Of a stretch of 64,000 bases of DNA, positions 12,243 to 28,659 are shown piece by piece. Source of the stretch: a virus (lineage: Duplodnaviria; Heunggongvirae; Uroviricota; Caudoviricetes); the IMG/VR virus record IMGVR_UViG_3300017605_000626, positions 1 through 64,000 of that record, one strand, 5' to 3'. The notes under the pieces were generated by a model, which worked only from the letters and a program-made list of their open reading frames with translations, was not told the origin of the DNA and did no database searches. A program made the translations under genes and the position numbers. The first letter of the stretch is position 1; each line of letters opens with the position of its first letter.

Positions 12243-12245
12243 AAA

Positions 12246-13077: not shown

Positions 13078-13290
13078 TCATTTTAGTGGCTCTAAGTCTG
13101 GATATTTCTTGTTTAACTCATCAAATACTTTCGCTAAGTATTCGATGCGTTCATTAAAGCCCATCAAGTGAGTATTCTTGTTGATCTGAGTTATATCAAG
13201 GTTCCTTAGCCTAGTTAATTCACTAAGATACAGAAAATTAACTTTTCTTTCCAGTTCATAGAATCTTTCTTCATTCATATTAGTTACCAC
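13078..13290 (-). CDS. hypothetical protein (70 aa)
   Basis: Track ORF. Confidence 0.35.
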   Translation of the reverse strand: MVTNMNEERFYELERKVNFLYLSELTRLRNLDITQINKNTHLMGFNERIEYLAKVFDELNKKYPDLEPLK

Positions 13291-14071
13291 TTGCGTGCAT
13301 TATAAGAACAGTTGCGCCTGCTACTATCGCATATTCTCCAACTCTTTTTATACCAGTTAAAAGCTTAGCACTAAAGGATTTCTTAGCAGCGGCCTTGTAC
13401 GCACCAGTTGCTTCTTTGGAATCTTTAATTGCTTTGTTAGCAAGAGCCAAAGCTAACTCTGTTTTATCTAATCTTTCTTGTAGAATTTGATTCTCTTGTT
13501 CGGTTAAGGCTAACAAATGAGTTTTAGATTCTAAGTCTAGTATCAAAGAATCATAATCCACTTTCATTACAAGCCAGTCTTTCACTTCTACAACTGTAAA
13601 TGCCAAGTTACCAGTCGGAGTAATTTCTGGCTCAATGCCTAGAATTTCCTTTACATCTTTAGCCACTTCAGTAGGCGTGGACTTGGCCTTTATAGAATCT
13701 GTTTTCTTCTTATTAAGAACCTTGCGCTGTTCAATAACCTTTAATTCCTTAGCTTTGAGTTTTTCAAGTTCAGCAATTAACTTAATCTTTTCCTCTCGCT
13801 CACTAGTTAATTGCCCAACAAAATCTTCATAAGTCTTAATACTTTGATTGGCTTGCTTCTCTACACCTTCTGCATAACCGAGCTTTCTTGCATCGTCTAC
13901 CAGGCTTTTGCCTACATAACCAATTATGAAGGCAAAGACAAGGATAGTGCCAAGGATAACAATTCTCTTGAAGGTAAACCAATCCTTAACAGGTTGAGGA
14001 ACTATAGGGCGGGTTAAAGACCCATTTTCTCTCAGCTTAGCATCCAGTTCACTTCGTTCTTTCTCGCTCAT
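13280..14071 (-). CDS. membrane-anchored coiled-coil protein (263 aa)
   Basis: TM helix (IVILGTILVFAFIIGYV), long heptad-rich regions and a C-terminal hydrophobic helix. Confidence 0.45.
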   Translation of the reverse strand: MSEKERSELDAKLRENGSLTRPIVPQPVKDWFTFKRIVILGTILVFAFIIGYVGKSLVDDARKLGYAEGVEKQANQSIKTYEDFVGQLTSEREEKIKLIAELEKLKAKELKVIEQRKVLNKKKTDSIKAKSTPTEVAKDVKEILGIEPEITPTGNLAFTVVEVKDWLVMKVDYDSLILDLESKTHLLALTEQENQILQERLDKTELALALANKAIKDSKEATGAYKAAAKKSFSAKLLTGIKRVGEYAIVAGATVLIMHASGN

Positions 14072-14539
14072 TGATTTTCTCCTTGATCAGATTTAATGCG
14101 GTTAAAGTGCTTCTAATTCAACTTGTTCTAAATCATCACCACATTCAGCACAAATAGGTTGTCCAGAATCTAAAACATTTATTATAAACTGATCTTTAGT
14201 CAGTGTAACAGCATCTTCGCACTTATTTGGGCATCGAAGGGTTATATATTCCATAATTAAATGTTCTTCTCACTTTTACACACGGTACAACGAGCACTCT
14301 TGAAATTGCTTTTTGCACCACGTAAATTATGCAAGCGTCTTTTCTTTCCATATACCTTGTCCTGGTATTCGTGTTCACAGTTACAAGGCAAGACCACTGG
14401 TTTCATTTTATTTTCTCCTAAGAATCAAAATCCATAATAACAAAGCACCACCAAGATAAGCAATTAAGCATATAATTGCAATGTATTGTACTAAAAATTC
14501 CATTTCTTATTTTCTCACTTTTTGTTTTATAAAGGGTAA

Positions 14540-14573
14540 TAAAAGAAAACCCCGCCCAATTAAGAACGGGGTA
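14540..14573 (-). terminator. rho-independent terminator (minus strand)
   Basis: Hairpin ACCCCGCCC..GGGCGGGGT followed on the minus strand by TTTTCTTTT. Confidence 0.45.
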
Positions 14574-14663
14574 GTCTTAGATGTAATGAACTATTTACGA
14601 GTTAGAGAACAAGTGATCTATAGAGTAGTATCTCCTTTCTGTACTGTAGTTTAAAATATACTG

Positions 14664-14867
14664 CTAAACCCCATTTAGGTCAGCAGTTTCTACTATGACC
14701 AAATTACCATCAGCTTTTACTAATGATAGTTCAGTCATAATCTGATGGATTTCAACCATTGTATGAGAAGGCACATATTCTGCCTTTTTGCGGATTGACT
14801 TGGGAAATTGAGATAAGATCCGGTTAATAGTCGGATCAATCTCTTCCATAGTTAAATCGTCTGGCAT
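14664..14867 (-). CDS. hypothetical protein (67 aa)
   Basis: Track ORF. Confidence 0.35.
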   Translation of the reverse strand: MPDDLTMEEIDPTINRILSQFPKSIRKKAEYVPSHTMVEIHQIMTELSLVKADGNLVIVETADLNGV

Positions 14868-14879
14868 TCTATGCCTCCT

Positions 14880-15170
14880 TTATAAATGAATTAATTGCTT
14901 TTTCTTGTTGTGCGTAGCAAGAAAAGCTTCAACTACGGTCTTAACTTCATACTTTAATTCGTCAGGAACTTCACCGCAAGAACCTGATGTGTAACTAATA
15001 ACTCTACTATATTCAAAGTAACCGCCGCCGTTATAACTCTGAATCCCTTTGTGCCAAAGAATGTTACTATGAATTTCATTAGATAACCATACAACAAAAT
15101 TGTCTGAATCCACCACATATTGACCAAACTCTGGATTATGTAATGAGTAATACTTAGCTACATAAAGCAT
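14880..15170 (-). CDS. hypothetical protein (96 aa)
   Basis: Track ORF. Confidence 0.4.
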   Translation of the reverse strand: MLYVAKYYSLHNPEFGQYVVDSDNFVVWLSNEIHSNILWHKGIQSYNGGGYFEYSRVISYTSGSCGEVPDELKYEVKTVVEAFLATHNKKKQLIHL

Positions 15171-15343
15171 CGCAATTTCCTCATAACAAAGAAATTATGT
15201 GATCCACAATGCTAAGAACAAGTTTATTGAAATAGGCTAATTCAACAGTACTCAACGATTTTCTATGGTTAAGCTCCTGTATAATCAAGTCAATTGTATA
15301 AATCCTGTCTTTAATTAGCCCTATTCGATGCACTTGTTCAATC

Positions 15344-15982
15344 TTACTCGTTGTTTGCCGAGTACTTAGATTTATATTCTTCATCTTTTTCAATTGTTTT
15401 CTTAAAAAACATATTTGCAGCGGTATGGTAAATGATAATTCCTTCTGCGGGTTTAAAACCAGGAGAAGCTTTGCTTCCATTGACACTTAAATCTTCTAAG
15501 GTTCCCCAAATAGCGTTTTCATTAAAAATACCTCTATATAGAACAGGTACTACATGGCAACATTTTGGAGCATTTTCAGGCGTCCATCTTGTAGTATTAA
15601 ACAAAGAAAATCTCTTTTCACCTAATCCGTATCCTCTTTGAATACCTCTGCCCCACCATTCACCAAAGTGAGTTCCAGGACCAAGTTTAGCAAGCTCTTC
15701 AGATTCTGCACGAACCCAATTAGCAAAACCTGCATTGTCATTTTTAGGAGTAATCCATTTATTTCTGGAAGCAGCTATAATTGCCAACCCATCCTTCACG
15801 CAAGTAGCCGTCGTTTCAACAAAATGTTCAGATATTAAAGGGTCAATAGAAAAGGCATTTACATAGTTAATTGTGATAGACGCATTAGTTCCGTCTATTT
15901 TTTCAGATATGACAATTTCTCTACTTAATCTTGGTATTTTAGGAAACGGCTGAAAATCCATATTATCCTCATTGTAATCCAA
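15344..15982 (-). CDS. RNA ligase (Rnl2-like nucleotidyltransferase domain)
   Basis: Motif I EKIDGTN (T4 Rnl2 EKIHGTN), the lysine-adenylation KxDG motif. Confidence 0.55.
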   Translation of the reverse strand: MDYNEDNMDFQPFPKIPRLSREIVISEKIDGTNASITINYVNAFSIDPLISEHFVETTATCVKDGLAIIAASRNKWITPKNDNAGFANWVRAESEELAKLGPGTHFGEWWGRGIQRGYGLGEKRFSLFNTTRWTPENAPKCCHVVPVLYRGIFNENAIWGTLEDLSVNGSKASPGFKPAEGIIIYHTAANMFFKKTIEKDEEYKSKYSANNE

Positions 15983-16214
15983 AGTGTGAGTTTATCCTCA
16001 TGATCTCTCTATTTAACTGTACTTCTCTCTCAAACAGGTTATTATCAGGCTGGTTAAACCTTTGCCTATTAATTGCAACCATTTCCGGCCATAAAGAGTT
16101 GGTGGCTAAATCTACAGCGTTAATTCTAGTCCAGATATGCATTCTTTCATATCTAGTATCCATTAAACATTGACTTTGAAAGAACAATTCTTCAAAAAAG
16201 GCGGCTTTATTCAT
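15969..16214 (-). CDS. hypothetical protein (81 aa)
   Basis: TTAACCG motif 18-24 nt upstream of the start. Confidence 0.4.
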   Translation of the reverse strand: MNKAAFFEELFFQSQCLMDTRYERMHIWTRINAVDLATNSLWPEMVAINRQRFNQPDNNLFEREVQLNREIMRINSHFGLQ

Positions 16215-16446
16215 GATTTTTAGGATAAGCGTCGGTTAAAAGGCCAATAAAGTCAAACTTAGCAAATTCAGCCTCTAAGTTCCTATCCTCTTGGCAAACA
16301 AGGGATTTAACATGGTCAACAAACTGCAAAAAAGTAGTTTGACCAGATTCAAGAGCAATTAATAGTTCTTTCACTATTACAATCCTTTGCTTCTCATAAT
16401 CCTCGTTAGGAAACGGGTTAGGAAGGTCTTTTGTGCTTATTGCCAT
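16207..16446 (-). CDS. hypothetical protein (79 aa)
   Basis: SD AAAGGTGG and a TTAACC motif upstream. Confidence 0.4.
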   Translation of the reverse strand: MAISTKDLPNPFPNEDYEKQRIVIVKELLIALESGQTTFLQFVDHVKSLVCQEDRNLEAEFAKFDFIGLLTDAYPKNHE

Positions 16447-16548
16447 AGCAAACCACCTTTCTGGTTAAGAAATGGATTCTAGGTGCCTTTACGTGCGATT
16501 AAATGGCAAATCTCACCACATTATTGCACATCATGCTCATATTCTTCG

Positions 16549-16734
16549 TTACTTGTTAATACAATTGGATTGCACATCAGGGAAAAGAAGGTTAAACAAA
16601 CTGTTCAAACACTTCATACAAAGGGTAATTTTTACGGTGGGATTATCTTTATTAGAGAAAATAGCAAGCTCTTTACGAACATCTTGATTATTGTCACATT
16701 GGAAACAATCGTCTGTAGAAGGTTTAAGAATCAT
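16549..16734 (-). CDS. small Cys-rich protein (61 aa)
   Basis: CFQCDN...CMKC. ATGA-coupled to the upstream gene. Confidence 0.3.
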   Translation of the reverse strand: MILKPSTDDCFQCDNNQDVRKELAIFSNKDNPTVKITLCMKCLNSLFNLLFPDVQSNCINK

Positions 16735-17330
16735 TCTGGTATCTCCAAAGCAAAGATTTCATCAGCTACTCCACCAGCACAAGCCAACATTTGCTGGATA
16801 TATCCTCTTGAATAAAGAGAATAGGCATTAGAATACCAAACGCCTTTTGACCAATGACCACCAGATTCATTTGCTACGGTAATGTCACCAGTGTTATCAA
16901 TAAAGGCGAGTTTATTCCAACCCCCAACCAATTGCTCAAGCAAATCAAGTTTTTCCTTGTAATCAGGAAGGAAATATTTTTTCAAGATTTTTTCGGTAAA
17001 GGTCCAGGTATCTGACTTACCTTCTGGAATTCCTTTAATGTCAATAACTCCGTTATGAAATACCACCACATCTTTAGACATTTCAAACGGATGGCACATT
17101 TCTAGGCCAATAGTGCCATGTGTGCCCGCCCTAAAGTGCGCGACATATGGACGGCCATTAATCTGGTTAAAAAGCGGTCTTATATCGGCATAATACATTG
17201 TTTTATATACTTCTAGCTTTCCATTATTAGCAAAAGCAATGCCAAAACCGTGTGGGTTATGATGATAAGCATTTTCAATCTTATTTTCTGGCATTAACTT
17301 CCCTTCTCTACTACAAAGCAACAAACACAT
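16731..17330 (-). CDS. class-II glutamine amidotransferase-like (Ntn, YafJ-type) protein
   Basis: N-terminal MC(LLLC) putative nucleophile Cys2, HGFGIAF segment. Confidence 0.4.
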   Translation of the reverse strand: MCLLLCSREGKLMPENKIENAYHHNPHGFGIAFANNGKLEVYKTMYYADIRPLFNQINGRPYVAHFRAGTHGTIGLEMCHPFEMSKDVVVFHNGVIDIKGIPEGKSDTWTFTEKILKKYFLPDYKEKLDLLEQLVGGWNKLAFIDNTGDITVANESGGHWSKGVWYSNAYSLYSRGYIQQMLACAGGVADEIFALEIPE

Positions 17331-17342
17331 GAAATTTCCTTT

Positions 17343-17549
17343 CTAATTTTGGCGGGTTAATGGCACTTGAACGGTTAAAACGTTGAATACTGCGGTATTA
17401 ATTTCTTCAATCCTAAGAAGAATATCTTGCGGGTTAACATAGTTATTCAATTCACCGTGGAACTTAGAAGAGGAGAGATAAGAACGGATAAATTCTAATC
17501 CTTCTTTCATGATACGATTCTCTTCTTGCAGCTTGGAAATGTAGTTCAT
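17343..17549 (-). CDS. hypothetical protein (68 aa)
   Basis: Directly downstream of the repeated promoter. Confidence 0.4.
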   Translation of the reverse strand: MNYISKLQEENRIMKEGLEFIRSYLSSSKFHGELNNYVNPQDILLRIEEINTAVFNVLTVQVPLTRQN

Positions 17550-17587
17550 AAATGTGTCTCCATTGATAAGTCTAAATCCTTTCTTAT

Positions 17588-17633
17588 CAGCACGTTATAC
17601 GAGGCATTTACCTTTTTATTCAAGGCAGTAGAA
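17588..17633 (-). promoter_or_regulatory. sigma70-like promoter (TTGAAT-N18-TATAAC), copy 2 of the 31-bp repeat
   Basis: Same 31-bp sequence as 9911..9941. Confidence 0.45.
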
Positions 17634-17821
17634 TCCTTATGCTTCAATAAAGATACGTGAAAAAGTTGGATTAAAAGCCTTTGGATCGTATTCATATTGC
17701 AATTTGTAGTTGTTCCATGAATAAAGCCCAAAACCTTGAAATTCTACTTTTTCAAACAAAGTTTTTCTTTCTCCATGAAACAAAGAAATTTTATAGCCTT
17801 TAGAACACAGAGCTAGTAGTG

Positions 17822-18613
17822 TCATTTTTGTTCGGTTAAGTACAAGAAGGCACTGCCAGGAGTTTTCATTTCAATAAGTATTTGTACTACTTCTTCAGCA
17901 AAGAAAGACAATTCTTTGTCCTTGGCTAATTTTTTAGCAGCATAAGCAGCAGCACCAGCAGCACCAGCAGCACCAGCACCAGCAGCATAAGCAGCATAAG
18001 CACCAGCAGCAGCAGCATAATCACCAGCACCAGCAGCATAAGCAGCAGCAGCATCAGCAGCAGCATAAGCAGCATAAGAAGCATCAGCATAAGAAGCATC
18101 AGCAGCGGCAGCAGCAGCATAAGCAGCATCAGCAGCAGCAGCAGCAGCAGCATAAGCAGCATCAGCAGCATCTTTAGTGCCTTCTATTTCACATCTCTTT
18201 GCTGCATTTAATAAAGAATTTTTATGGGTTTTATTTAATTTTGCAGCAGATCTTAAAGCACGCGGTAAAATACGTCTTATTGTCATTTCTACGACTTTAC
18301 TAAGAAATTCTTTTTCATCCAACGTACCAGAAGTTCCAAGTTGTGCTACAGCAATTCTACGCAACCCAATAGCTCTAGCTCTGTCAGATGACCAATCACA
18401 ATCATTCAAAGAAATTTTCAAGCTCCTTAAAGATGGTGCTACACACTTTGGTTCATCACCGTGCGGCCAGCCAAAAGCATAGCAAACAGCCGCTTCCACA
18501 CACATTTTACCAGGTATAGGCTGGCCTTTGCCCTTACACAACCCTGCATCAACTACTTCTAAAACCTTAACGGCGTTTTGTTCTGTAATCTCCATTTTAT
18601 TTCTTCTTATCAA
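17822..18613 (-). CDS. protein with Ala/Tyr/Asp low-complexity C-terminal half
   Basis: Approximately 110-aa run of AAYAAAAAADAAY encoded by a GCAGCA repeat. Confidence 0.5.
   Translation of the reverse strand: MIRRNKMEITEQNAVKVLEVVDAGLCKGKGQPIPGKMCVEAAVCYAFGWPHGDEPKCVAPSLRSLKISLNDCDWSSDRARAIGLRRIAVAQLGTSGTLDEKEFLSKVVEMTIRRILPRALRSAAKLNKTHKNSLLNAAKRCEIEGTKDAADAAYAAAAAAADAAYAAAAAADASYADASYAAYAAADAAAAYAAGAGDYAAAAGAYAAYAAGAGAAGAAGAAAYAAKKLAKDKELSFFAEEVVQILIEMKTPGSAFLYLTEQK
17926..18171. repeat. (GCAGCA/GCATAA)n trinucleotide microsatellite inside a CDS
   Basis: Approximately 245 bp of GCA/GCT-phase repeats. The opposite-strand poly-Leu ORF is an artefact of it. Confidence 0.8.
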
Positions 18614-18926
18614 TTAAGTCCATGAATTTTTCCCAAGAAATTGTCCCCTCGCTCGCCACATATATATACCAGGCTAGTCTTTGCGGGCTTGGATACATCT
18701 TAAAAAGATTTAGATATTTGTCCACAAAGAACTCTTCAGCAGTCAAACCAAACGGCAATAAAATTTGGTTTGACTCCTCAATTAAGTCTTTAACTGTAGC
18801 TTTCTTTTCCATTATGGGTGCACCGTAGGTGTGCCTAAGAAGGCAAGGATTACTAACGTAAGAAAAAGAATTAAAAGAACCCAACAAAAAACACAGCCCT
18901 TTTGATTTGACATATAGCCCCTCCAA
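18597..18926 (-). CDS. hypothetical protein (109 aa)
   Basis: Track ORF. Confidence 0.4.
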   Translation of the reverse strand: MEGLYVKSKGLCFLLGSFNSFSYVSNPCLLRHTYGAPIMEKKATVKDLIEESNQILLPFGLTAEEFFVDKYLNLFKMYPSPQRLAWYIYVASEGTISWEKFMDLIDKKK

Positions 18927-19026
18927 TTAAATTAGTGGTTATTGATCCGTATAACCCAGATTGCATATACTTTTATGTCGTCACTTCGACAAGTATTATT
19001 AGGGTTATACGGAGTGTAACAACTAA

Positions 19027-19227
19027 TTAAAGCCCTTTATATGGAATCACTCCAGCCATATTTTGATGATGAGATTCTAAGTGTTTCTTTAAATGACTAT
19101 AACTAAAGAAAACAAGTGTAATTTTTGTTTTCGGGTAAACACACGAATCACATCTTTCAAAAACTGAATTAGTTATTTTAAGAACTTGTTTTTTCTTTTT
19201 CATAAATATTATCTTCCTTAAAGACAA
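19027..19227 (-). CDS. hypothetical protein (66 aa)
   Basis: Track ORF. Confidence 0.3.
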   Translation of the reverse strand: MSLRKIIFMKKKKQVLKITNSVFERCDSCVYPKTKITLVFFSYSHLKKHLESHHQNMAGVIPYKGL

Positions 19228-19396
19228 TATGCTTTTTCATCCAGTTATGGTATTTATTTTCACTGGTTACAATCTTACCAATTAACTGCTGAATCTTGCC
19301 AATTAATAACCAGTAGAAGAAATACAAAGCAAACCAAGCAAATCTAATTTTATTCATAAACTCTTCAGTAAATATCATCAATAACCTCATCTTCAA
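19178..19396 (-). CDS. small membrane protein (72 aa)
   Basis: Hydrophobic segment. Confidence 0.3.
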   Translation of the reverse strand: MKMRLLMIFTEEFMNKIRFAWFALYFFYWLLIGKIQQLIGKIVTSENKYHNWMKKHIVFKEDNIYEKEKTSS

Positions 19397-19610
19397 CCAG
19401 ATTTTGCTCGTTAAGATTTGGTAAAAACTCTTCCCAAACTCTGGTTATATGCATGTCAACCCACCAAGAAACTAAAACCAATAATTCATTCATATGGATT
19501 ACCTCCAATTATAGCCTTAATTAGTGAATAAATGGGATTGTTTAGCGTTTAACGACGAAGTAATCGCAGCTAAAGACCTTGGACGTTCCAGATTTATCCA
19601 CTAATTAAGG

Positions 19611-19766
19611 TTATAACTTCTTTTTTCTTTTGTGCCATCTAATTCTATCACATTCACGACAATCCCTAGCACCACTAGGATTTATATAGGTATTTTTCCA
19701 ATTATATTCATGCCCATTAGGGCAATGAGTTTTTGGGGAATTAAGTTTTGCAAAGTAATTAGGCAT
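19611..19766 (-). CDS. small Zn-finger / HNH-like peptide (approximately 51 aa)
   Basis: Hand translation MPNYFAKLNSPKTHCPNGHEYNWKNTYINPSGARDCRECDRIRWHKRKKEVI. TAATG overlap with the upstream gene. Confidence 0.3.
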   Translation of the reverse strand: MPNYFAKLNSPKTHCPNGHEYNWKNTYINPSGARDCRECDRIRWHKRKKKL

Positions 19767-20008
19767 TATAGCTTGTAATAGGAGATGAAATTAAGAACAG
19801 ACTGTGAGGGTGTATAACCAAGTTGTGCGGTTAAATACCGAGTATACATTCTTTCCTTGGCCTTTTCTTCTTCAACAGACAAAAGGGAAAATGCTTTTTC
19901 GTCAATGCATCGTACTGTAAACTCGGCCACAGCATCAGCAGCAGCATAATCTCCGGTTAAAACTAGAGCAGTTCGAGCAGCAGAAGTTACAATCTTTTTG
20001 GCAGTCAT
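19766..20008 (-). CDS. hypothetical protein (80 aa)
   Basis: Track ORF. Confidence 0.4.
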   Translation of the reverse strand: MTAKKIVTSAARTALVLTGDYAAADAVAEFTVRCIDEKAFSLLSVEEEKAKERMYTRYLTAQLGYTPSQSVLNFISYYKL

Positions 20009-20725
20009 AAATCCCCCTAATTAATAAGCGTGTTAGGTAGTGGAATTAAATTGATCAAACGGTTAAACACTAATTCAATCGCCTCATCAATTGATTCCAG
20101 GTTATTAGCAAAACAGATCATTGCTAAATCACCTAAAGAATAATATGGTAATTCAAATATCTTTCTTGCTTTTTCATCATTTGTCATAAATCACCAATTA
20201 AAAAGGTAAATGGGAAGTAGGCGGCAACAGCCTGCCAGGACTTCCCATTAATAGGTCGTTCAGTTTCCCAGATTTAATTTATTTTGTTGTTTAGAATCTC
20301 ATTGTGTAGCCCTCCATATGGTTAAATACGCCTTATGGCGCATATGCTTATTAATGGCGGGTTTGGCTAGGTCCACCATTAACCTCTGCTGAGGCTATAT
20401 CTTATATATTATCTAATTTAATTTAATAAAGCTCTTTTCGTTACGTTCGCGCAAAGCATACAATCCCATACCAAAGCAATTGTAAACCGTTTTACCTTCC
20501 ACGGATAAGGAAAGCGCATAACAAATTGAGCACTAGTTGGAGCAATTTCCACACTAGCTTTGCAAGTCTATCGGCTATCCCCGTGTCACTCTTATCAGTT
20601 AGTATAATTCGCGGTTAAACGCCTTCAATTATACTCCTTGGACAAAGAAAATGACCGCAGTTCAACTAGCCGCACTTAGATTATTTCCAGTATTAGCTTC
20701 AGCCTAAAGCCACAACCAAAAATAC

Positions 20726-21379
20726 CTATGCGTTGGTTAAAAAATTACGGAGATAAACCAAATTATGCTGACTGTTATTTGGATCTTTCTCAGTAATTTG
20801 TAGATTAGTAAGCAGTTTATCTAGAGAAACATTGAACTCGCCTTGAACTGCCCTAATCTCAAACTCCTCTACTACATGGAGACAACGTGCAATCCATCTG
20901 GGGTGGAGACACATGTTAAAGAGCCTAAACTCCACCGTTTTATGCTCTGTTGGAAAGGATATGCAATCATGATGCAATCCAGTTCCTTTAATCCGCTCAT
21001 TTGCAGCCCCATCATTAAACCAAGTACCACTACCGCGACGATATACATTTGGGCGGAAAGACAATTTCTTTTCTTTGTAGAAATTCATAACTTTGCCGCA
21101 ATCAAGCAATAAAAGAGAGTAATTGCCTGAGTTATGGATATGCATTCCACAGGTTTTATTACCTTTAGCGCCGATCATCTTGAGAAAAGCCGCCATCTCA
21201 AACACTTGGGCTTTTTGATCCCAATTAAGAACAGGACTGACAACTTCCACACCAAATGGTTCAATTGTCGGATCTATCTTATCCACCCAACCAGGAAACC
21301 AATCCTTTAAGGCTCTTACTTGGTTCTTATAGGTAGAACCCCTTATACCAGCAACCTCAAACTCAATTCCAAATGGCAT
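20726..21379 (-). CDS. putative amidoligase-family (COOH-NH2 ligase) enzyme
   Basis: GMHIHNSG, a G-x-H-x-H segment characteristic of the phage-associated 'putative amidoligase' family. Weak call. Confidence 0.35.
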   Translation of the reverse strand: MPFGIEFEVAGIRGSTYKNQVRALKDWFPGWVDKIDPTIEPFGVEVVSPVLNWDQKAQVFEMAAFLKMIGAKGNKTCGMHIHNSGNYSLLLLDCGKVMNFYKEKKLSFRPNVYRRGSGTWFNDGAANERIKGTGLHHDCISFPTEHKTVEFRLFNMCLHPRWIARCLHVVEEFEIRAVQGEFNVSLDKLLTNLQITEKDPNNSQHNLVYLRNFLTNA

Positions 21380-21538
21380 ATAAATTCTCCAATTAAGAAT
21401 TAAATCGTTTTATTAAAACAATTAACAAAGTAATTGCCTTAATAAAACGGGCGATATCCCCGGTGATACCGCCCATTCACAAGCTATATCGCTATAGCCA
21501 ACACTAGGGCAAGTTATCCGGCATCCTAGTAAAAACGG

Positions 21539-21928
21539 TTAAGCCTTTGCACGAACGATCTTATTCTTGCTTCCCTTGGGACGACCACGCCCTTTCTTAG
21601 AGTTGCCATTAACAAGAGAATTTGCCAGTTTCAGCAAATCCTTTGGGTTAAGCTTCTCCAAAGCCGCAAGAACGGGATTCTCCATAGTCGCCACAACATT
21701 CTTGGGACGACCGTTAGGGAGCAATCTCACCGCAACCTGAACATCTAGATTATCGTGACCAGGCAAAGCCGAATAACGGGAATTACCTACTCCAGTTCCG
21801 GTTAAGGAATAGATTCGGTTGCCCTGTGCATTCGGCTCAGATAGCCGATCAGCAGGGAGTTTGCTGGTATCAATGGTTAACGTGAAACCAGGCCCACTGA
21901 TCGTGGTTACATTTACAATCTTAGGCAT
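21539..21928 (-). CDS. AT-hook DNA-binding protein
   Basis: C-terminal KKGRGRPKGSKNK. Confidence 0.45.
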   Translation of the reverse strand: MPKIVNVTTISGPGFTLTIDTSKLPADRLSEPNAQGNRIYSLTGTGVGNSRYSALPGHDNLDVQVAVRLLPNGRPKNVVATMENPVLAALEKLNPKDLLKLANSLVNGNSKKGRGRPKGSKNKIVRAKA

Positions 21929-22079
21929 TTGTTTTTCACCTCCTTTTTTGTAGAAATTAAAGAGTTTAGGACTTGTTAGGGCAGATAATATAGCTACTTC
22001 GAAGTGTAGAAGGTATCCCGTGGGATACCCCTACTAGCAATTATCTGCCCTAGCAAAGCCTAAGCTTTGCTTTCTACGA

Positions 22080-22541
22080 TTACTTGCATTCAACCGTAGA
22101 ATTTTCCATTCTTGTGCGGAATTGCTGCGTTTCTGCGTCAAAGGTCGCCCTAAGAACGTAGCGCACAATTAAATCATTGTCTGGACCGCTACCTGACAAC
22201 ACAAACTTTTGTCTGATTCCCTGATCGGTGAGCGTGTTCCTGTCAAACTGAAACTGTGCTTTCTCGTCAATGCGGACTTTATAGACGGCATTGCTCACCA
22301 TTCCGATGCCGACAGTATTATCCCCTTCTTTGACGTGGAATTGTACTAGGCCGATTGAACCATTAAACATCAGGTGAATGTTGGCAATTAACGAACCTGA
22401 AACTGCAACTGGTTCAGTAGTGCATGGCGCACTAAAGACTCCGCTCATTGGGGATTCTTCAGTGTAGTTCTGTTGCTGAGCAGCGGCATTCAAACTCAAA
22501 CAACAAACAATCATCATCAAAACGGTTAACATGCTTTTCAT
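22080..22541 (-). CDS. secreted protein with signal peptide
   Basis: MKSMLTVLMMIVCCLSLNAAAQQ. Confidence 0.5.
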   Translation of the reverse strand: MKSMLTVLMMIVCCLSLNAAAQQQNYTEESPMSGVFSAPCTTEPVAVSGSLIANIHLMFNGSIGLVQFHVKEGDNTVGIGMVSNAVYKVRIDEKAQFQFDRNTLTDQGIRQKFVLSGSGPDNDLIVRYVLRATFDAETQQFRTRMENSTVECK

Positions 22542-22574
22542 GCTACTAATCTCCTTTTTGTTTGGGCTGAGAAA

Positions 22575-22868
22575 TTAATACTGAATCTTGGCTGACAGAT
22601 AGGCAATATCTGTCATTGCTTTTTCCGCCTTATCTTCTGCGGTTACTCCAACTTGAGCCTCATACCGCGCAAGGTCAGCTTGCCGACGGATAAGAGCCTC
22701 TTTTCGCTTTTGATCCTTCGATTTGGGCATTAAAACCTCCATTTGAGATATACTTACTGCTGCACCAGGTACTCGCCTTCTAAAATCTGTTACAGAGTTT
22801 CTACTAGCACGCCGCCAATTCATGAAAAAATCTCCGGTTAAGTAAAGAGAACTAGGCTGTAAAGCCAC
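22575..22868 (-). CDS. hypothetical protein (97 aa)
   Basis: Track ORF. Confidence 0.4.
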   Translation of the reverse strand: MALQPSSLYLTGDFFMNWRRASRNSVTDFRRRVPGAAVSISQMEVLMPKSKDQKRKEALIRRQADLARYEAQVGVTAEDKAEKAMTDIAYLSAKIQY

Positions 22869-23234
22869 ACACAGAAAAGAAAGAAAATCTCAAGCCAATC
22901 ATCTTTCATGGCAATTATCCAATTAAAAATTTTTTAGTGCAATTTTGACAAACTAGAGCAGAGAAATGTTTTACCCAAATTAATGGGTATTTGCAGTTAT
23001 AACAGCGTCTATTAATAATTCTAGACACCATTCTGCTAAAGAAGTATCTAATACTGTCAAACATGAAACCTCCAATTCCTTTTCTAAAAACTAAAACGTA
23101 TTTAGTGTTTAGAAAAAGATTATCCAGTTATTCAAGCGATACTGGTAAACGCTCTCTTGGCTACAGGCGCATATAACCTCCAAGGTTATTTATTCAATTA
23201 AGAGAGAGGCAAATTCTACGTCTCACAGAATGGA

Positions 23235-23510
23235 TTAACTACGCGGTAAAGACTTGATGAGTCTTTCGTAGGCGTTTGGAAATTCTTTTTCGTAGTTAGG
23301 ATCAACTTCTCCTAACTCGTAAAGCTTTCCAGAACGAACGATAATCTTGTTTTCTTCCGAGTTAAACGCCATGATACCAGAAGTATTGATTGATTTACCA
23401 TCTTCAAACTTCGGATGGTTAAAAACCTTTCCATGAAGCCTTGGCGTTCTAGCTTCCGGTGCTTGAAACGGGTTATCACACGTAACGCACCAGTTTTCCA
23501 ATCTAGGCAT
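23235..23510 (-). CDS. hypothetical protein (91 aa)
   Basis: Track ORF. Confidence 0.4.
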   Translation of the reverse strand: MPRLENWCVTCDNPFQAPEARTPRLHGKVFNHPKFEDGKSINTSGIMAFNSEENKIIVRSGKLYELGEVDPNYEKEFPNAYERLIKSLPRS

Positions 23511-23528
23511 TTCTTCTCCTTTTTGCGG

Positions 23529-23804
23529 TTAAAACCCGCTACCTAAAAGATTTGCTAACAAACCAGAAATAAACTCTCTGTGCCTTTCAAGCCGATAAAG
23601 CTCTTGTGGCTCGTTCTGGCTTTTAATCCAACTAATTGCCCTGTTAACATCGTCCATCAATTCCCGCAAACATGGGAAACTTGGATAACGTGGATGTTTT
23701 CTCTTTGACGTGATTTGTCGCACGTTAACGGGATTAGTTAAACCAGGGCAATTAAGACAGCCATTAGAATACACTGGAAAATTGCAGTTATTGCACAGTT
23801 CCAC
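23529..23804 (-). CDS. hypothetical Cys-rich protein (91 aa)
   Basis: CNNCNF...CLNCPG. Confidence 0.4.
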   Translation of the reverse strand: MELCNNCNFPVYSNGCLNCPGLTNPVNVRQITSKRKHPRYPSFPCLRELMDDVNRAISWIKSQNEPQELYRLERHREFISGLLANLLGSGF

Positions 23805-23808
23805 AGGG

Positions 23809-24063
23809 TTAACCTCTCATGGATTTGAGTTTCTTGCTATGCACGCTACCAGTTCTACCAGATTTTGCTTTGTGAACTGGTTTACAACCGTGTTTCAGGG
23901 CTTGGATTGCCTTCGTTTTCTCCGCATTCTGAATTTGCTCACGGTTATCACCCTTTACGTTCCAGTTACAATCAGGAAACCCACAAGAAGGACATTCTGC
24001 CTCTTCTGGGAAACCATCAGGAACCATTATGGTATCGCTGGCACACTGTGGACAATAAAGCAT
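23809..24063 (-). CDS. zinc-ribbon protein (84 aa)
   Basis: CPQC...CPSC..C. Confidence 0.4.
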   Translation of the reverse strand: MLYCPQCASDTIMVPDGFPEEAECPSCGFPDCNWNVKGDNREQIQNAEKTKAIQALKHGCKPVHKAKSGRTGSVHSKKLKSMRG

Positions 24064-24073
24064 GGTTAAAACC

Positions 24074-24340
24074 TCACCCGTAAACTAGGATTTGTCTACC
24101 TTCTGGGCCTTTCACACAAATTCCACGGGATAATGGGCCGGATGAATCCCGCTCACCGTCAAAGAATTCTCCAACGGGAAAGTAATTGCTGGTTAAGAGC
24201 CAATTAAAAGCCTTTCTTTCCCATTCTAGGTACTCATCGCTGCAATACCCTTCATAATCAAAATCGGCTGGAAGGATATCGCACAGATTGCGGTAAAGCT
24301 TTCTGGTAGGACGAAAAACCATTGTTACAGTGTTTTCCAT
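24074..24340 (-). CDS. hypothetical protein (88 aa)
   Basis: Track ORF. Confidence 0.4.
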   Translation of the reverse strand: MENTVTMVFRPTRKLYRNLCDILPADFDYEGYCSDEYLEWERKAFNWLLTSNYFPVGEFFDGERDSSGPLSRGICVKGPEGRQILVYG

Positions 24341-24528
24341 AGCAAAACCTCCAGTTAAGAATTAGGGCTTATTGGAGAGGGCTTCGATTATAAACCCGTT
24401 GTTAAAGGGGTTTACGGGTAGAGTTATATAAGGAACTCCAGTTCCGTATTTCGCTCAATTCGCAATTGAGCACGGTATTTTTATATTCCCCGTTGTGCTC
24501 TGGAGTAACCAGCCCTCTCTAATAAAAC

Positions 24529-24731
24529 CTAATTACCTGTTAACTTAACCAGGTATCCGCGCAAAGTAGAAAGCTCTTCGTGTGGATCGGTTGAGATTAT
24601 GAATCTAGCACCATTGGGATGATTCCCGCTGGTTAACAAGATGCATCCCTTTTCTTCGTAATTCATCATGGCAGGAACGGCTCTTGTCATTATCTCGCTT
24701 TTAACAGCGATTGTGTAATGTAGTGGTTTCA
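24529..24731 (-). CDS. hypothetical protein (approximately 67 aa; track ORF trimmed to the SD-supported internal ATG)
   Basis: ATG MKPLHY with AGGGGAAA upstream. Overlaps the stop of the next gene. Confidence 0.35.
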
Positions 24732-24911
24732 TTTGGTTTCCCCTGAGTGAAGGAACATGATTGAAACGGTTAAACAAATTAGGGTTAATGCGCCTGTAAA
24801 CCAGGTGGCGAAAGTTTCGTTTTGCTTTAACGAAACTCCATAGCAAGCCGCCATTAAGACGGTCATTGCTAGAAACAAAAACGAAAGCGTGTAATTAACG
24901 ATTTTATACAT
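24729..24911 (-). CDS. small membrane protein (60 aa)
   Basis: Two hydrophobic helices. Confidence 0.35.
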   Translation of the reverse strand: MYKIVNYTLSFLFLAMTVLMAACYGVSLKQNETFATWFTGALTLICLTVSIMFLHSGETK

Positions 24912-25039
24912 TTCTCAAAATTCCCCCCAAATTTTACCATTAAAGCCGATTAGAAGCCCTTTTTCATTCAACCAGGCACACTAGAGATTTTCCAAGATTC
25001 ACAAAATTTAATTTGCGCTTATTGGGAAACCACCAGGCC

Positions 25040-25070
25040 AAAAAAATAGGGAAGGCATTATGCCTTCCCT
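25040..25070 (-). terminator. rho-independent terminator of the 386-aa island gene
   Basis: Hairpin AGGGAAGGCAttatGCCTTCCCT followed on the minus strand by TTTTTTT. Confidence 0.6.
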
Positions 25071-25094
25071 TGTACCAAAAAGCCTATTAGCTAT

Positions 25095-26255
25095 TTAGGC
25101 TTTGTGAAGGTTCCTGTTAACGTGCCTCGTTAACTCTTGAACCTGCCTCTTTAGTTCTCTAGCTTGCTTGCGAGCTTGCTTTTCCTTCATTCGTGCCTGC
25201 TTATCTTTCAACCGATCAAAGGCAGAGAATTGACTAGACATTTCTTTTTCTTGTCTAGGTCTACCATAGATTGCTCGGGTGATTGCTCCAACTGTGGGTA
25301 ATTCAATTACCTGACCTGCCTCGCAGTATTGTTTATCTGTCAAGTCAGGTTCAAATGACCTGTTAGGTAAGCTTGGAATACAGATAGGCACTAACACGTC
25401 CCTATACTGGTACTGGCAGACCTGCCTTGATTTGATAACTTGCTTGGCAGACTGCCAAAAGGTTTCTTGAAAAGCTTGCGCTTGCTTTGTTTCTTGCGCT
25501 TGACCATAGAAACGAGTCTCTATCTTTGTGAAAGTCTGGCTTGATTCTCGGAGTATAACGTTCGTCCACATAGGCATATAAACGAAACCTGCCTGCCTGA
25601 CCTGACCTGTGGGAAAGTGTAATCTCTTCTTATGCCAGATCTTGAACCGTTCAAAATGGTTCCTTTCAATCTTCAATCGTCTCCATAGCAGAATTTTTTC
25701 CTGTGGCTTGTCAGGAACTGTTTTGACCTGTGCCTTTCTATCGTCTGGCAGGCCTGGCTTGACCTGCCTTTTCTTGGGATAGATAAGCCTTTCAATTCCT
25801 GCCAGTTCTGCAAGCTTGCGAGTGTCTTTAGGGAAGTGTCTTCTAGCTTTTTCTAACTGGACAATCAAGGTTAGAGGAACATGGGAATCACTTTCCAAAG
25901 GCAGGAACGTGAAACCATGCACATTATCCTGACTGTTGCCTTTGGTCCAACTGTCAAAACTTTCCGTAGCATAGGCAATACTGGCTTGTATTGCCTTGTC
26001 AAGCCTTTCCAAGCTTGCTTTGCGTTCCTGTGCCTGCCTTTTCCAGACAGGCTTAACCTGCTCGAACGTGGAACGTTTTTCGAGCAAACTGGAAAAGTGT
26101 TCAAAGGCAGTCTGCCTCTTTTCCCTTCCAAAGATATCTTGTTTTTCTGCGAGGCAGTTCCAATCTCGAATAGCTTGGCTTTTGTCGATACCTGACAAAG
26201 CAATACAGGTTTCGACAAATGACCAAGCAATAACATGCCAACTAGGACTAGTCAT
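25095..26255 (-). CDS. basic K/R/Q-rich 386-aa protein (possible DNA-binding / replication-initiator-like), hypothetical
   Basis: Long ORF inside the GC-rich island with its own terminator. C-terminal basic coiled coil. Contains the CCTGCCTG repeat motif internally. Confidence 0.5.
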   Translation of the reverse strand: MTSPSWHVIAWSFVETCIALSGIDKSQAIRDWNCLAEKQDIFGREKRQTAFEHFSSLLEKRSTFEQVKPVWKRQAQERKASLERLDKAIQASIAYATESFDSWTKGNSQDNVHGFTFLPLESDSHVPLTLIVQLEKARRHFPKDTRKLAELAGIERLIYPKKRQVKPGLPDDRKAQVKTVPDKPQEKILLWRRLKIERNHFERFKIWHKKRLHFPTGQVRQAGFVYMPMWTNVILRESSQTFTKIETRFYGQAQETKQAQAFQETFWQSAKQVIKSRQVCQYQYRDVLVPICIPSLPNRSFEPDLTDKQYCEAGQVIELPTVGAITRAIYGRPRQEKEMSSQFSAFDRLKDKQARMKEKQARKQARELKRQVQELTRHVNRNLHKA

Positions 26256-26535
26256 TGCCTGCCTGCCTTTCCGATACCGTGCAATAAGTATCGTGCCATC
26301 CGTTCAATCCACCGCAAAACTCGCATTGTGTTTCCATGCCTTCATAAACTGGCAGGTAGGTAGGAACTATTTGAACCTGCCTTGCGTTCTTTCTGTTCTT
26401 TCGATCAAAGCGCTTGCAAGTTTTTTGAAACCTTGAGAATAACAGTCTTTTCCCAAGCTTTGAATCTGCCTGCTCAATAGACTTCAAAGGCAGGTTCAAA
26501 GTTAGTGTAGTTTGGTATCCGTATAACTTGTTCAT
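26248..26535 (-). CDS. hypothetical protein with C-terminal Cys/His cluster
   Basis: CEFCGG..WHDTYC. Confidence 0.35.
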   Translation of the reverse strand: MNKLYGYQTTLTLNLPLKSIEQADSKLGKRLLFSRFQKTCKRFDRKNRKNARQVQIVPTYLPVYEGMETQCEFCGGLNGWHDTYCTVSERQAGND

Positions 26536-26555
26536 TGTTTTACCTCATTGCGGAC

Positions 26556-26594
26556 ATAAAAAAAATGCCTGCTAGCACGATGCTAGCAGGCATT
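26556..26594 (-). terminator. rho-independent terminator
   Basis: 14-bp perfect inverted repeat AATGCCTGCTAGCAcgaTGCTAGCAGGCATT followed on the minus strand by TTTTTTTT. Confidence 0.65.
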
Positions 26595-26620
26595 GGAGAA
26601 AATGACCTGCCTGACCTGAC

Positions 26621-26967
26621 CTACTTTCCTGCCTGCCCCTTGTTCAATCCCTTCAGGTAGGCTTCAAGCAAGGGCTGGAATTGCGCGTCTGTGCGTGCCT
26701 TGCGTGCCAGTTCCTTTTTCTCGTCTGCGTCCGGAAATTCCGTGGAACTGTCTGTAATTCTGATCGAGACTGCGAACGTTCCAAGCTTCAACGTGTCCTG
26801 AAAAACAGTTGTGATGCCTGTCGTTTTCGATGCCTGATTCTGTTTGATGATATCGGCAACGTCGATTGACAGATGCGAACCATCAAGAACAGCACTCGAA
26901 CCCAAGCGCGTCATATCTGTAAAGCGCTTTACTGCCTCTGCCTTTACTGCCTTTGTTGCCTTTGCCA
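26621..26967 (-). CDS. hypothetical protein (115 aa from the SD-supported start MAKATKAVKAEA)
   Basis: AAGGAG 7 nt upstream of ATG at 26967. The track ORF extends further upstream. Confidence 0.5.
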
Positions 26968-27351
26968 TGATAATCTCCTTATAGGTGAAAAGGTTTTTTT
27001 GAGTGTCGATACACTCTATTTGTGCATGGAATAACCCATGCACAAACCATAGTATCGACTAGATTGCTCGCAGGTCAGAACTATCTACAATGAAGGAATA
27101 GCCGTTGTGCCTGACAAGTGAAACCTGCTCGAAACGGATGACCAGTACTACAAAAACCCCGTGATAGCTGAAAAGTTCTCCTTCGCGCTCATACATAGTG
27201 GCTTGCATGGGATTATCCTTTCCGCTCGTTAGCGAGGCAAGTTCAATAGAGGAACGATTGCTAGGCAATGTCCTAGAACATACACAACAAAAGAAGCAAT
27301 GAGTAAAGCTGGAACTGCAAAGAGTAAGCGCATGTTAATCCTTTCCTACTC

Positions 27352-27648
27352 TTACAGGTAGCATTTCGAGATAGCGTCACTAGCAGACCTATACAGGTTA
27401 GTGTATCGTCTATTTAGGTCTTCTGGGTTTTGCTCTACTGGCTTTCCTGACCTGTCTGTGTATAGGCCAATATACATACTGTTTGTCGCACAATCTGGAC
27501 AGGTCAGACTCATGAGCCGTTCAATTCTTTTTTCGCGTGCCTTTCCTCTGCCAAGGTTCCTGCCTGATACCAGATGGCCGCACTTGAGAGTAAAGCATTT
27601 TGGATAATCGTCTATGTGCTCACCATAATTGTCTTCTAGTCTCTTCAT
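27352..27648 (-). CDS. zinc-finger protein (98 aa)
   Basis: CFTLKCGH...CPDC. Confidence 0.4.
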   Translation of the reverse strand: MKRLEDNYGEHIDDYPKCFTLKCGHLVSGRNLGRGKAREKRIERLMSLTCPDCATNSMYIGLYTDRSGKPVEQNPEDLNRRYTNLYRSASDAISKCYL

Positions 27649-28659
27649 TGAATAGCGCCTGCCTTGCGCTCTTGAAAAACAAAGTTTAGTTTACTAGAGT
27701 GCAAACCCAGTACCATAGGCCAACCTATTTTTAGACTAGGAGAATGAATCACTTACATGCCTGCCTGTCAAATGACAGGAACGCAAGTGTAACTTGATTA
27801 CCCTTTTTGTGCAAAACAAGGAAAAAAGTGGAAACCTGCCTGCCTGATACAACAAATGTATTTTTGTAGTCTAGTCGATACACTTTTCCACAAGGCAATC
27901 TAATTGCCAATCTGTGTATCTACTACAATACAAAGTACTTAGTGAAAACCTTGCACATACAATGTGCATATGCCTCAAATTCGCACGTAAATAGGCCTAG
28001 AATCGTTCCTGCCTGCCTGCCAGTACCTCAGCATAGGCGAAAATTGAAGTGTTTAGAATCAACAAGTTAGACTTACTATATTTTACGAATTTGCAGGCAT
28101 GTTCCACTTGAAATAAATACAAATGTATGAACATACTCAACAAACATACATATGTATGTAGCAACAAATGTATGTATGCGCCTGGCAACAATACTACAAT
28201 GCTAGCATTGTAACAATGTAGCAATGTGGCAATGTGCCTGCGTATCATTATATAGTGCATTCTTTCATGCCTGCCTGTGTACCAAGTTCACTATGCAATG
28301 CCTTTGTGTGTAGGGCATAGTGCTTCTTTGCCTGACCTGCCTGCGTAGTGAATAAACCGTCTGCCATGCAAGGCAATGTGGAGGGAAGCATAGGTGAGCT
28401 GACCTGCGAGGTATGTGCGCGGAAGGTTCCTGTATCGCGTGGGGTTTCAGGTTCCTGTATGGCAGACGGTTTCTGTGGCATGGGAAGAGAATACCACGGC
28501 AGCCAAGCTTTTGTTGAATCTAAACGAGTTACGAGCGAAAAGTGGGTGGAAACTGTGGCAGATTCGGTGCCTTTTCGGTGCCTGGCAGACCGAGCCGGCA
28601 TGGGTGGGCGGTGCAGACCTGGATATAGAGCGTAAGGCTACTCTGACAAAAAATGGAAA

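Follow-up and report, generated by a model that had tools for sequence, protein, structure and literature searches.

Why should a six-letter word be written 36 times along one strand of one block of phage genes, and what could read it there? The question is raised by positions 1 to 64,000 of IMG/VR record IMGVR_UViG_3300017605_000626, a novel tailed-phage genome segment; this whole stretch of 64 kilobases (kb) is called the window below. Between about 12.1 and 24.8 kb, the word TTAACC recurs on the minus strand, the sense strand of the genes there, usually with G, A or C as its seventh letter. The word is enriched and strand-biased, its territory has a sharp upper boundary, it ignores reading frame, it alters the composition of the encoded proteins and it has no promoter-like companions.

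A sequence-only reading of this DNA had noticed the complement, CGGTTAA, as over-represented on one strand, and exact counting bears this out. CGGTTAA occurs 19 times in the window, always on the plus strand, where dinucleotide shuffles give 4.4 +/- 1.8 copies and at most 10. That the motif keeps to one gene block, non-randomly and on one strand, also holds: 18 of the 19 copies lie within 12107-24773 (binomial p = 4e-12 for the interval). Single-mismatch analysis places the core under selection at TTAACC on the minus strand. From 12113 to 24788 this hexamer is found 36 times in the sense orientation and 3 times in the opposite one, against an expectation of 3.3-6.0 under models of order 0 to order 2; an order-3 Markov model expects 12.3 but is inflated by the motif itself. 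The enrichment is about nine-fold, with p = 7e-14 for clustering and p = 2e-8 for orientation. Outside the block the two orientations are nearly balanced (17 versus 12), and the 13 sense-strand copies match the 14-15 or so expected.

The letters on either side of the core are degenerate. Of the 36 copies, 18 have G at position 7, 11 have A, 6 have C and 1 has T; at position -1 there are 18 with T and 10 with C. Outside tandem repeats, no 7-mer of the block is stronger than TTAACCG. The excess of TTAACC(G) is a real and strongly selected signal. A word that is non-random, strand-specific and limited to a single block must be some form of cis-signal.

Several details of the sequence-only reading need adjustment. 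It had placed the cluster at 16.2-25.2 kb with about one copy in the preceding 16 kb; the territory in fact begins 4 kb further left, at 12.1 kb, and five exact CGGTTAA copies lie at 12107-14827. Its count of at least 20 copies in 16.2-25.2 kb is too high for the exact 7-mer (13) and correct for the 6-mer GGTTAA (28). The downstream region, said to be empty, has an exact 7-mer at 55008, and GGTTAA occurs there ten times, which is background density. Among the sites it cited, those at 16233-16239, 17372-17378, 17833-17839 and 24767-24773 are as described, and those at 16463 and 20737 are TTAACCA variants.

At what level is the word selected? We assigned frames by a hand-curated tiling of 38 minus-strand open reading frames (ORFs). 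Half of the 36 copies (18) are in phase 1, read as TTA-ACC; 9 are in phase 2, 4 supply the TAA of a stop codon and 5 are intergenic. The proteins of the block contain 29 Leu-Thr dipeptides where their composition predicts 16.6, and 18 of these are spelled TTA-ACC, against 2.9 expected. The 32 other minus-strand genes of the window, which served as the comparison set, have 32 Leu-Thr dipeptides where 31.6 are expected and use TTA-ACC twice. ACC accounts for 28% of threonine codons in the block and 11% elsewhere. Since the word occurs in any frame and in intergenic DNA, and since Leu-Thr is in excess, selection acts on the nucleic acid, with enough force to change which amino acids the proteins contain. 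The change argues that the number of copies matters, and not merely a few well-placed ones. A Leu-Thr motif selected in the proteins does not fit the presence of the word in three frames and outside coding DNA. Nor does paralogy among the genes of the block fit as its source: the flanks are not conserved and the frames differ.

The territory and its 36 copies are as follows.

12107-24788, minus: territory of Y-TTAACC-(G/A/C), 36 sense copies, about one per 350 nucleotides (nt), among about 38 small, mostly ORFan ORFs
24782-24788, minus: TTAACCC in ORF 24729-24911, phase 1, 56 nt ahead of the next start
24767-24773, minus: TTAACCG in ORF 24729-24911, phase 1, 41 nt ahead of start 24732
24630-24636, minus: TTAACCA in ORF 24529-24732, phase 1
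24190-24196, minus: TTAACCA in ORF 24074-24340, phase 1
24063-24069, minus: TTAACCA, intergenic, with a Shine-Dalgarno sequence on one side and ATG 24063 on the other
23806-23812, minus: TTAACCC whose TAA is the stop of ORF 23809-24063, 8 nt ahead of the next start
23526-23532, minus: TTAACCG whose TAA is the stop of ORF 23529-23804, 22 nt ahead of the next start
23416-23422, minus: TTAACCA in ORF 23235-23510, phase 2
22835-22841, minus: TTAACCG, intergenic, overlapping a GGAG ribosome-binding site, 18 nt ahead of ATG 22823
22523-22529, minus: TTAACCG at codons 5-6 of ORF 22080-22541, phase 1
21874-21880, minus: TTAACCA in ORF 21539-21928, phase 1
21799-21805, minus: TTAACCG in ORF 21539-21928, phase 1
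21645-21651, minus: TTAACCC in ORF 21539-21928, phase 2
21536-21542, minus: TTAACCG whose TAA is the stop of ORF 21539-21928, 163 nt ahead of the amidoligase start
20734-20740, minus: TTAACCA close to the end of the amidoligase ORF 20726-21379, phase 1
20612-20618, minus: TTAACCG in the ORF-free gap 20188-20725, at the tip of a 9-base-pair (bp) hairpin
20319-20325, minus: TTAACCA in the ORF-free gap 20188-20725
20060-20066, minus: TTAACCG in ORF 20017-20187, phase 2, 58 nt ahead of the next start
19954-19960, minus: TTAACCG in ORF 19766-20008, phase 1
19828-19834, minus: TTAACCG in ORF 19766-20008, phase 1
17833-17839, minus: TTAACCG in the final codons of ORF 17822-18613, 14 nt ahead of the next start
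17431-17437, minus: TTAACCC in ORF 17343-17549, phase 2
17372-17378, minus: TTAACCG in ORF 17343-17549, 48 nt ahead of start 17330
17354-17360, minus: TTAACCC in ORF 17343-17549, 30 nt ahead of start 17330
17164-17170, minus: TTAACCA in the GATase-like ORF 16731-17330, phase 2
16589-16595, minus: TTAACCT, the sole copy with T at position 7, in ORF 16549-16734
16462-16468, minus: TTAACCA, intergenic, 22 nt ahead of start 16446
16233-16239, minus: TTAACCG in ORF 16207-16446, 25 nt ahead of start 16214
16051-16057, minus: TTAACCA in ORF 15969-16214, phase 2
15266-15272, minus: TTAACCA in ORF 15181-15333, phase 2
14821-14827, minus: TTAACCG in ORF 14664-14867, phase 2
14099-14105, minus: TTAACCG whose TAA is the stop of ORF 14102-14254, 34 nt ahead of start 14071
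14011-14017, minus: TTAACCC in ORF 13280-14071, phase 1
13501-13507, minus: TTAACCG in ORF 13280-14071, phase 1
12735-12741, minus: TTAACCG in ORF 12577-12786, phase 1
12107-12113, minus: TTAACCG, the territory's last copy, in ORF 12051-12242, 59 nt ahead of start 12054

Does the word sit where a start signal would? Within 60 nt upstream of a start codon there are 14 of the 36 copies, where 5.9 are expected (p about 0.001), and 9 of the 18 copies ending in G, where 2.9 are expected; seven of the 36 lie at 14-34 nt. These counts bear on the earlier claim that many copies lie 17-30 nt upstream of starts. All words containing TTAA are start-biased, however (44 against 27.7 expected for TTAA, 15 against 6.1 for TTAATT), because gene junctions are rich in TAA stops. 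Over this baseline the excess is only about 1.4-fold (estimated p about 0.09), so the relation of the word to starts is weak. Inside ORFs lie 27 of the 36 copies; 22 are more than 60 nt and 20 more than 100 nt from the next start, and three are on or after the ribosome-binding site of the next gene. The gaps between neighboring copies are irregular, from 15 to 1995 nt.

Two places in the territory stand out. The only part of the block free of TTAACC is the 2 kb at 17.84-19.83 kb, around a 263-amino-acid ORF (17822-18613, minus strand) with a long low-complexity repeat of Ala, Tyr, Asp and Gly (AAYAAAAAADAAY...), which is the source of an excess of TGCTGCT-type k-mers. The other is the 538-nt gap at 20188-20725 on the minus strand, free of ORFs in an otherwise tightly packed block. 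It folds at -151.5 kcal/mol (z = -3.0; none of 100 shuffles is as stable) and has no Rfam match. Two TTAACC lie in it, one of them at the tip of a hairpin, along with a single GGTTAA. The gap may encode a structured non-coding RNA.

The word has no visible partner. When the 36 copies are aligned, information is confined to positions -1 to +7 and amounts to about 13 bits. Compared with 5000 control positions on the same strand, the copies show no excess of TATAAT-like, TTGACA-like or extended -10 sequences at plausible distances, and no AT-rich tract, local hairpin or extra folding energy around them. A promoter for a single-subunit RNA polymerase of the T3/T7 type (in T3, AATTAACCCTCACTAAAGGGAGA) would be conserved over about 20 nt around a shared ATTAACCC; here conservation ends at 8 nt, and the best match in the window to a T3, T7 or SP6 promoter is only 15-16 of 23. 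A search for the T4 late and phiEco32 promoter words was negative as well. A start-associated or translational-enhancer sequence, such as the SAS of cluster K phages or the T7 epsilon UUAACUUUA, needs a fixed position, and the distances here range from 6 to 739 nt. A depletion of C at +11 and +12 is accounted for by codon phase and multiple testing. As for complementarity or identity to segments of 16S rRNA, the flanking positions do not fit. Among plausible small RNAs that might carry a GGTTAA seed, the only candidate, at 20379-20384 in the ORF-free gap, is sequestered in stems; Rfam has no match anywhere in 11.5-29.5 kb.

How do the limits of the territory relate to transcription? The relevant landmarks, predicted from the letters, are these.

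29036 and 28796: predicted consensus-like sigma-70 promoters (TTGACA, 17-18 nt, TATTTT)
26594-26564: strong intrinsic terminator
25048-25070, minus: strong intrinsic terminator with a 10-bp stem and a T run, closing the upstream unit just ahead of the territory
24931-24939, minus: extended -10 promoter-like site TGGTAAAAT, 28 nt ahead of the block's first gene (24911)
14549-14572, minus: intrinsic terminator with a 9-bp G+C-rich stem and a T run, inside the territory
14434-14442, minus: extended -10 promoter-like site TGTTATTAT, 36 nt ahead of start 14406 and directly after the 14549-14572 terminator

The sharp upper boundary of the 12.7-kb territory falls at the first of the terminator and promoter pairs, and the first TTAACC lies 150 nt downstream of the promoter-like site at 24.93 kb. 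Between each terminator and the gene that follows it (25048-24911 and 14549-14406) there is no TTAACC; the extended -10 sites are found there instead. Framed by ordinary pairs of this kind, the block needs no extra promoters. The composition here is unusual too. The tetranucleotide signature of 18.5-28.6 kb correlates with that of the rest of the genome at r of about 0-0.26, compared with 0.3-0.4 among core regions. Between 12 and 28 kb, running counter to transcription, G+C climbs steadily from 0.35 to 0.44, and at 28-30 kb it drops abruptly to 0.36. The deviant signature and the gradient together suggest a separate evolutionary module.

The unit upstream has a word of its own. In a scan statistic over all 6- and 7-mers, AGGCAGG ranks first: all 21 copies in the window lie on the minus strand at 25142-28342, compared with 2 that are oppositely oriented. 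The copies fall in each of the three frames of the local ORFs and also in non-coding DNA, with one locus per about 150-190 nt. The unit is bounded by the promoters at 29036 and 28796 on one side and by the terminator at 25048 on the other, and the last AGGCAGG is 77 nt ahead of that terminator. At about one copy per 150 nt the word cannot be a promoter set. The succession of AGGCAGG and TTAACC, switching at a terminator/promoter junction, points to word tags specific to transcription units or modules. Also present in this region, 25142-28342, are GGCAGG in 24 copies and CAGGTCA in 11, some of them forming short runs of (CAGG)n and (TCAGG)n. Its G+C is 0.43-0.44, against 0.35 elsewhere, and in tetranucleotide signature it shows no correlation with the rest of the window. 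A 386-amino-acid ORF fills much of it; a search of 1.8 billion representative proteins turned up no homologue of this ORF. There is also a third, weaker word, TTAATTG: 33 sense copies lie in 0-24 kb (1-24207, minus strand) and 4 in the 40 kb beyond, and the opposite orientation accounts for 7. The word usually follows T or C and occurs in two reading frames and in intergenic DNA, several copies lying directly ahead of ribosome-binding sites. TTAATTG and TTAACCG have the frame YTTAA..G in common.

What kind of genome carries these words? The genes of the window form two runs.

About 47 kb down to 1 kb, minus strand: PolA, dUTPase, methyltransferases, many small ORFs, three tRNAs, a PurA-like enzyme, an ATP-grasp protein and a COOH-NH2 ligase
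47 kb onward, plus strand: HNH endonuclease, TerS, TerL (the terminase genes at 48 kb) and fibers

The closest cultured relative is Tunturiibacter phage Tunturi_4, with 40% identity in TerL, 30% in PolA and only seven genes in common. One of the seven encodes an RF-1/ArfB-like small protein of the GGQ family (39230-39568, minus strand), 45% identical to the Tunturi_4 'RF-1 domain peptide chain release factor'. Neither the block nor 25-29.2 kb has a DNA match by megablast and blastn in 50,697 phage records. Scans of IMG/VR seeded with peptides of the GATase-like protein, the amidoligase, TerL and PolA found no relative. A scan of JGI metagenomes with the COOH-NH2 ligase gave one match at 33% identity, in an unrelated locus where TTAACC is at background, and protein searches turned up nothing beyond the proteins of the window itself and a ubiquitous family at 50-60% identity. 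As far as these searches reach, the phage is an uncultured metagenomic singleton, and comparative tests of the word are impossible for want of usable relatives. Tunturi_4 itself (PP885687.1, 88 kb) lacks TTAA entirely (0 against 218 expected) and is therefore uninformative on TTAACC. Its AATT and TATA are likewise depleted; the absence of TTAA probably reflects avoidance of a TTAA-specific restriction enzyme in its own host.

Other genes of the minus strand deserve mention. A diverged homologue of PurA (adenylosuccinate synthetase) at 3791-5140 has a Pfam E-value of 4e-43, and the best solved PurA reaches only 3e-21. Its gene adjoins the ATP-grasp, COOH-NH2 ligase and tRNA genes, and a PurZ-type role in making 2-aminoadenine DNA is a candidate only. 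The tRNA genes at 3335-3413, 3709-3785 and 9954-10042 (Lys-UUU, Arg-UCU and Leu-UAA) all encode their CCA ends. In the block itself are an RNA ligase (15344-15961) and a cyclic-phosphate-processing cREC_REC protein (12246-12608). The three tRNAs, the ligase and the cREC_REC protein suggest a kit for tRNA/RNA repair and replacement against anticodon nucleases.

Does any of these genes encode a reader? We searched about 60 ORFs of the window against Pfam and PHROGs; about 60 kb of the 124-kb contig lies outside it. In the block the hits were the amidoligase, the GATase-like protein, the RNA ligase and the cREC_REC domain, and nearly all other ORFs are ORFans. Two candidate DNA-binding proteins are a Cro/CI-type helix-turn-helix protein at 47190-47462, whose Tunturi_4 homologue is annotated as a repressor, and an AT-hook protein encoded within the block at 21539-21928, recognized from its translation.

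Our tentative preference is for a number-dependent word: TTAACC(G/A/C) would be read on the transcript or on the non-template DNA strand, and what counts would be how many copies there are, not where they lie. Reading of the sense strand or its RNA fits four observations: the copies are spread almost evenly, they ignore frame, their territory is bounded at a promoter and it has a parallel in that of AGGCAGG. The switch of words exactly at the terminator/promoter junction is the main reason why we rank this possibility slightly above a promoter. With equal reserve, we suggest that the word may tag one early or accessory gene block in an orientation-dependent manner, through a putative reader of RNA or of the non-template strand. 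In such a scheme, host RNA polymerase would start at the ordinary promoters near 24.93 and 14.44 kb and produce long polycistronic RNAs. A sequence-specific factor, which might be an endoribonuclease, an RNA-binding protein or an elongation factor of the phage or the host, would recognize single-stranded UUAACC about every 350 nt and so set the processing, lifetime or elongation of this gene class apart from the rest of the genome. The logic would be that of T4 RegB acting on GGAG in early mRNAs. A regulator or antiterminator site was among the suggestions of the sequence-only reading; what stands of it is that a putative sense-strand reader, acting during or after transcription, would best fit the near-uniform, number-dependent spread.

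Several observations weigh against this preference. The word is not avoided in other sense strands, although avoidance would be expected of a destructive word, and in sense RNA it is not significantly more unpaired than when its flanks are shuffled (mean unpaired probability 0.58 and 0.54, respectively; t = 1.2). At 12.1 kb, the lower end of the territory, there is no recognizable terminator or promoter, and the genes there overlap by ATGA. Among the ORFs searched, Pfam and PHROGs revealed no sigma factor, RNA polymerase, ribonuclease or RNA-binding protein. We know of no direct precedent for a 6-7 nt RNA tag this dense in coding sequence; RegB sites are mostly at ribosome-binding sites. Finally, all genes from 1 to 47 kb are co-oriented, so the polarity of transcription is inseparable from that of replication or DNA entry.

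What else could the word be? It is possible, if rather doubtful, that TTAACC(G) is a single-element promoter, a -10-like hexamer used by the host polymerase with a phage sigma-like factor, or by a phage polymerase, to give a middle-class boost. T4 late promoters consist of an isolated TATAAATA read with gp55. A precedent of the same length is found in phiEco32, where the 6-nt element AATGTA, centered at -11.5, suffices for middle and late promoters and is read by gp36 (PMC12276001). Our word is short, lacks a -35 partner and is specific to one strand and one block; its flanks are degenerate (Y at -1, G>A>C at 7) in a way that accords with a protein reader, and the window encodes accessory enzymes of the phiEco32 type (COOH-NH2 ligase, amidoligase, ATP-grasp protein). 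Ten of the 18 TTAACCG lie 14-68 nt upstream of a start, and two more are intergenic, ahead of the amidoligase gene or the ORF-free gap. But a promoter thus suits about 12 of the 18 and leaves at least 14 surplus copies deep in ORFs, and the Leu-Thr excess, unexplained. There are 36 copies for about 38 genes, the distant majority deep in ORFs, and the three copies on or after a ribosome-binding site leave too little room to drive the gene that follows. Measured against words containing TTAA, most of the positional excess goes away; no AT-rich tract or other sign of melting, no fixed start-site position and no second element goes with the word; the gaps where a promoter is called for hold extended -10 sites and no TTAACC; and the search of the window's ORFs detected no sigma factor or polymerase gene. 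Of the earlier suggestion of a promoter element, the precedents among short phage promoters stand, and its fit extends to fewer than half of the copies.

The remaining possibilities have more to do with DNA. There is a small chance that the word is a dispersed asymmetric operator, bound in one orientation across the block by a monomeric repressor or silencer that blocks the elongating polymerase, in the manner of the L5 repressor at the stoperators of mycobacteriophages. The many copies co-oriented with transcription, in genes and at junctions, would suit this, as would the helix-turn-helix and AT-hook proteins. Yet about 13 bits over 7-8 nt, compared with the 13-14 bp of known stoperators, is too little for specificity on a background of bacterial size, the distribution is limited to the block rather than genome-wide, and no integrase or lysogeny module was seen in the window. 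We consider it similarly improbable that the word is a polar DNA signal for a nuclease, translocase or replication enzyme, giving Chi-like protection to the first-entering DNA or serving in priming or translocation. It does resemble Chi and KOPS in being number-dependent, strictly oriented, frame-independent and strong enough to alter coding, and the two word territories lie directly downstream of an AT-rich non-coding region with strong promoters (28.6-29.2 kb) that could be a physical genome end. The terminase genes lie at 48 kb, however, which makes a genome end near 29 kb unexpected; known Chi sites are G-rich and this word is not; and it is limited to the block and switches at a terminator/promoter junction, which a signal in DNA metabolism has no reason to respect. 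Least probable of all, and very much so, is a target of restriction or modification, including an orientation bias of the Type III kind (as for CAGCAG in T7), or a functionless compositional legacy of an acquired module. In being short and asymmetric the word recalls Type III, Type IIS or BREX sites, but defense predicts depletion or orientation bias throughout the genome; here a word enriched in one block returns elsewhere to expected counts and balanced orientations, which lends no support to the modification or restriction target proposed from sequence alone. The deviant tetranucleotide signature and the G+C gradient would accord with a legacy, but a dialect gives neither a ninefold enrichment of a hexamer in one orientation nor a Leu-Thr excess.

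The usual account of phage temporal programs rests on promoters, sigma factors and antiterminators located at gene boundaries. In this block, selection for six letters is strong enough to alter codon choice and even amino-acid composition across about 38 genes with little regard for those boundaries, and the different word of the neighboring unit is denser still. We think it unlikely, but worth stating, that successive units each carry their own sense-strand barcode (AGGCAGG at 25.1-28.3 kb, TTAACC at 12.1-24.8 kb and the weaker TTAATTG at 0-24 kb), with class-specific factors that bind or cleave RNA timing the fate of each mRNA. Such barcodes would be a layer of temporal control exerted through word density in coding sequence, which to our knowledge has not been described for phages. 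Were TTAACC(G) a promoter, it would imply a new phage-specific transcription specificity and a sigma-like factor among the ORFans; were it read on RNA or the non-template strand, it would represent a new class-specific control that works by site density. Either way the word is a sequence handle for finding the regulator and for delimiting the early or accessory module in uncultured phages, although its practical weight is limited, as this phage is a metagenomic singleton.

How does the word compare with known systems? The T4 endoribonuclease RegB targets GGAG in early mRNAs. In both cases a short single-stranded word is enriched on the sense strand of one temporal gene class, and one factor would treat that class apart. 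GGAG is 4 nt long and mostly in ribosome-binding sites, whereas the phage word is 6-7 nt and mostly in coding sequence. The sense-strand enrichment in one class is thus found, and the concentration in ribosome-binding or intergenic sites and the single-strandedness are not (27 of 36 in ORFs; t = 1.2). No gene for a RegB-like or other sequence-specific endoribonuclease was recognized in the window, where most neighboring genes are ORFans. The T4 late and phiEco32 elements resemble the word as single 6-8 nt elements, specific to strand and class, with no -35 partner. They lie just upstream of genes, about one per one to three genes, whereas 20 of our 36 copies lie over 100 nt from the next start, the window showed no sigma gene and ordinary promoters frame the block.

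The stoperators of cluster A mycobacteriophages, bound by the L5 repressor gp71, are 13-14 bp long and spread over whole temperate-phage genomes. They too are asymmetric, number in the tens and are co-oriented with transcription, in genes and at junctions; the phage word differs in its 7-8 nt and in its confinement to 12.1-24.8 kb. Chi, KOPS and the EcoP15I sites of T7 have an orientation bias that is genome- or replichore-wide. Like the phage word they are orientation-dependent, frame-independent oligomers that act by number, but the word keeps to 12.7 kb with a boundary at a terminator/promoter junction and shows no genome-wide skew. The half-site of CtrA, TTAACCAT, known from Alphaproteobacteria and their phages, has the core TTAACC in common with the word, and 5 of the 36 block copies read TTAACCAT. 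The full TTAA-N7-TTAAC site is no commoner than chance (TTAA at -11 in 1 of 36 copies, 1.5 expected), and G is preferred over A at position 7. CtrA boxes are located in promoters and not strand-locked to coding sequence, whereas the phage word keeps a single orientation inside ORFs. On the evidence of the full site, of position 7 and of orientation, the word does not qualify as a CtrA box. It is best filed as a variant among the class-specific cis-elements of phages.

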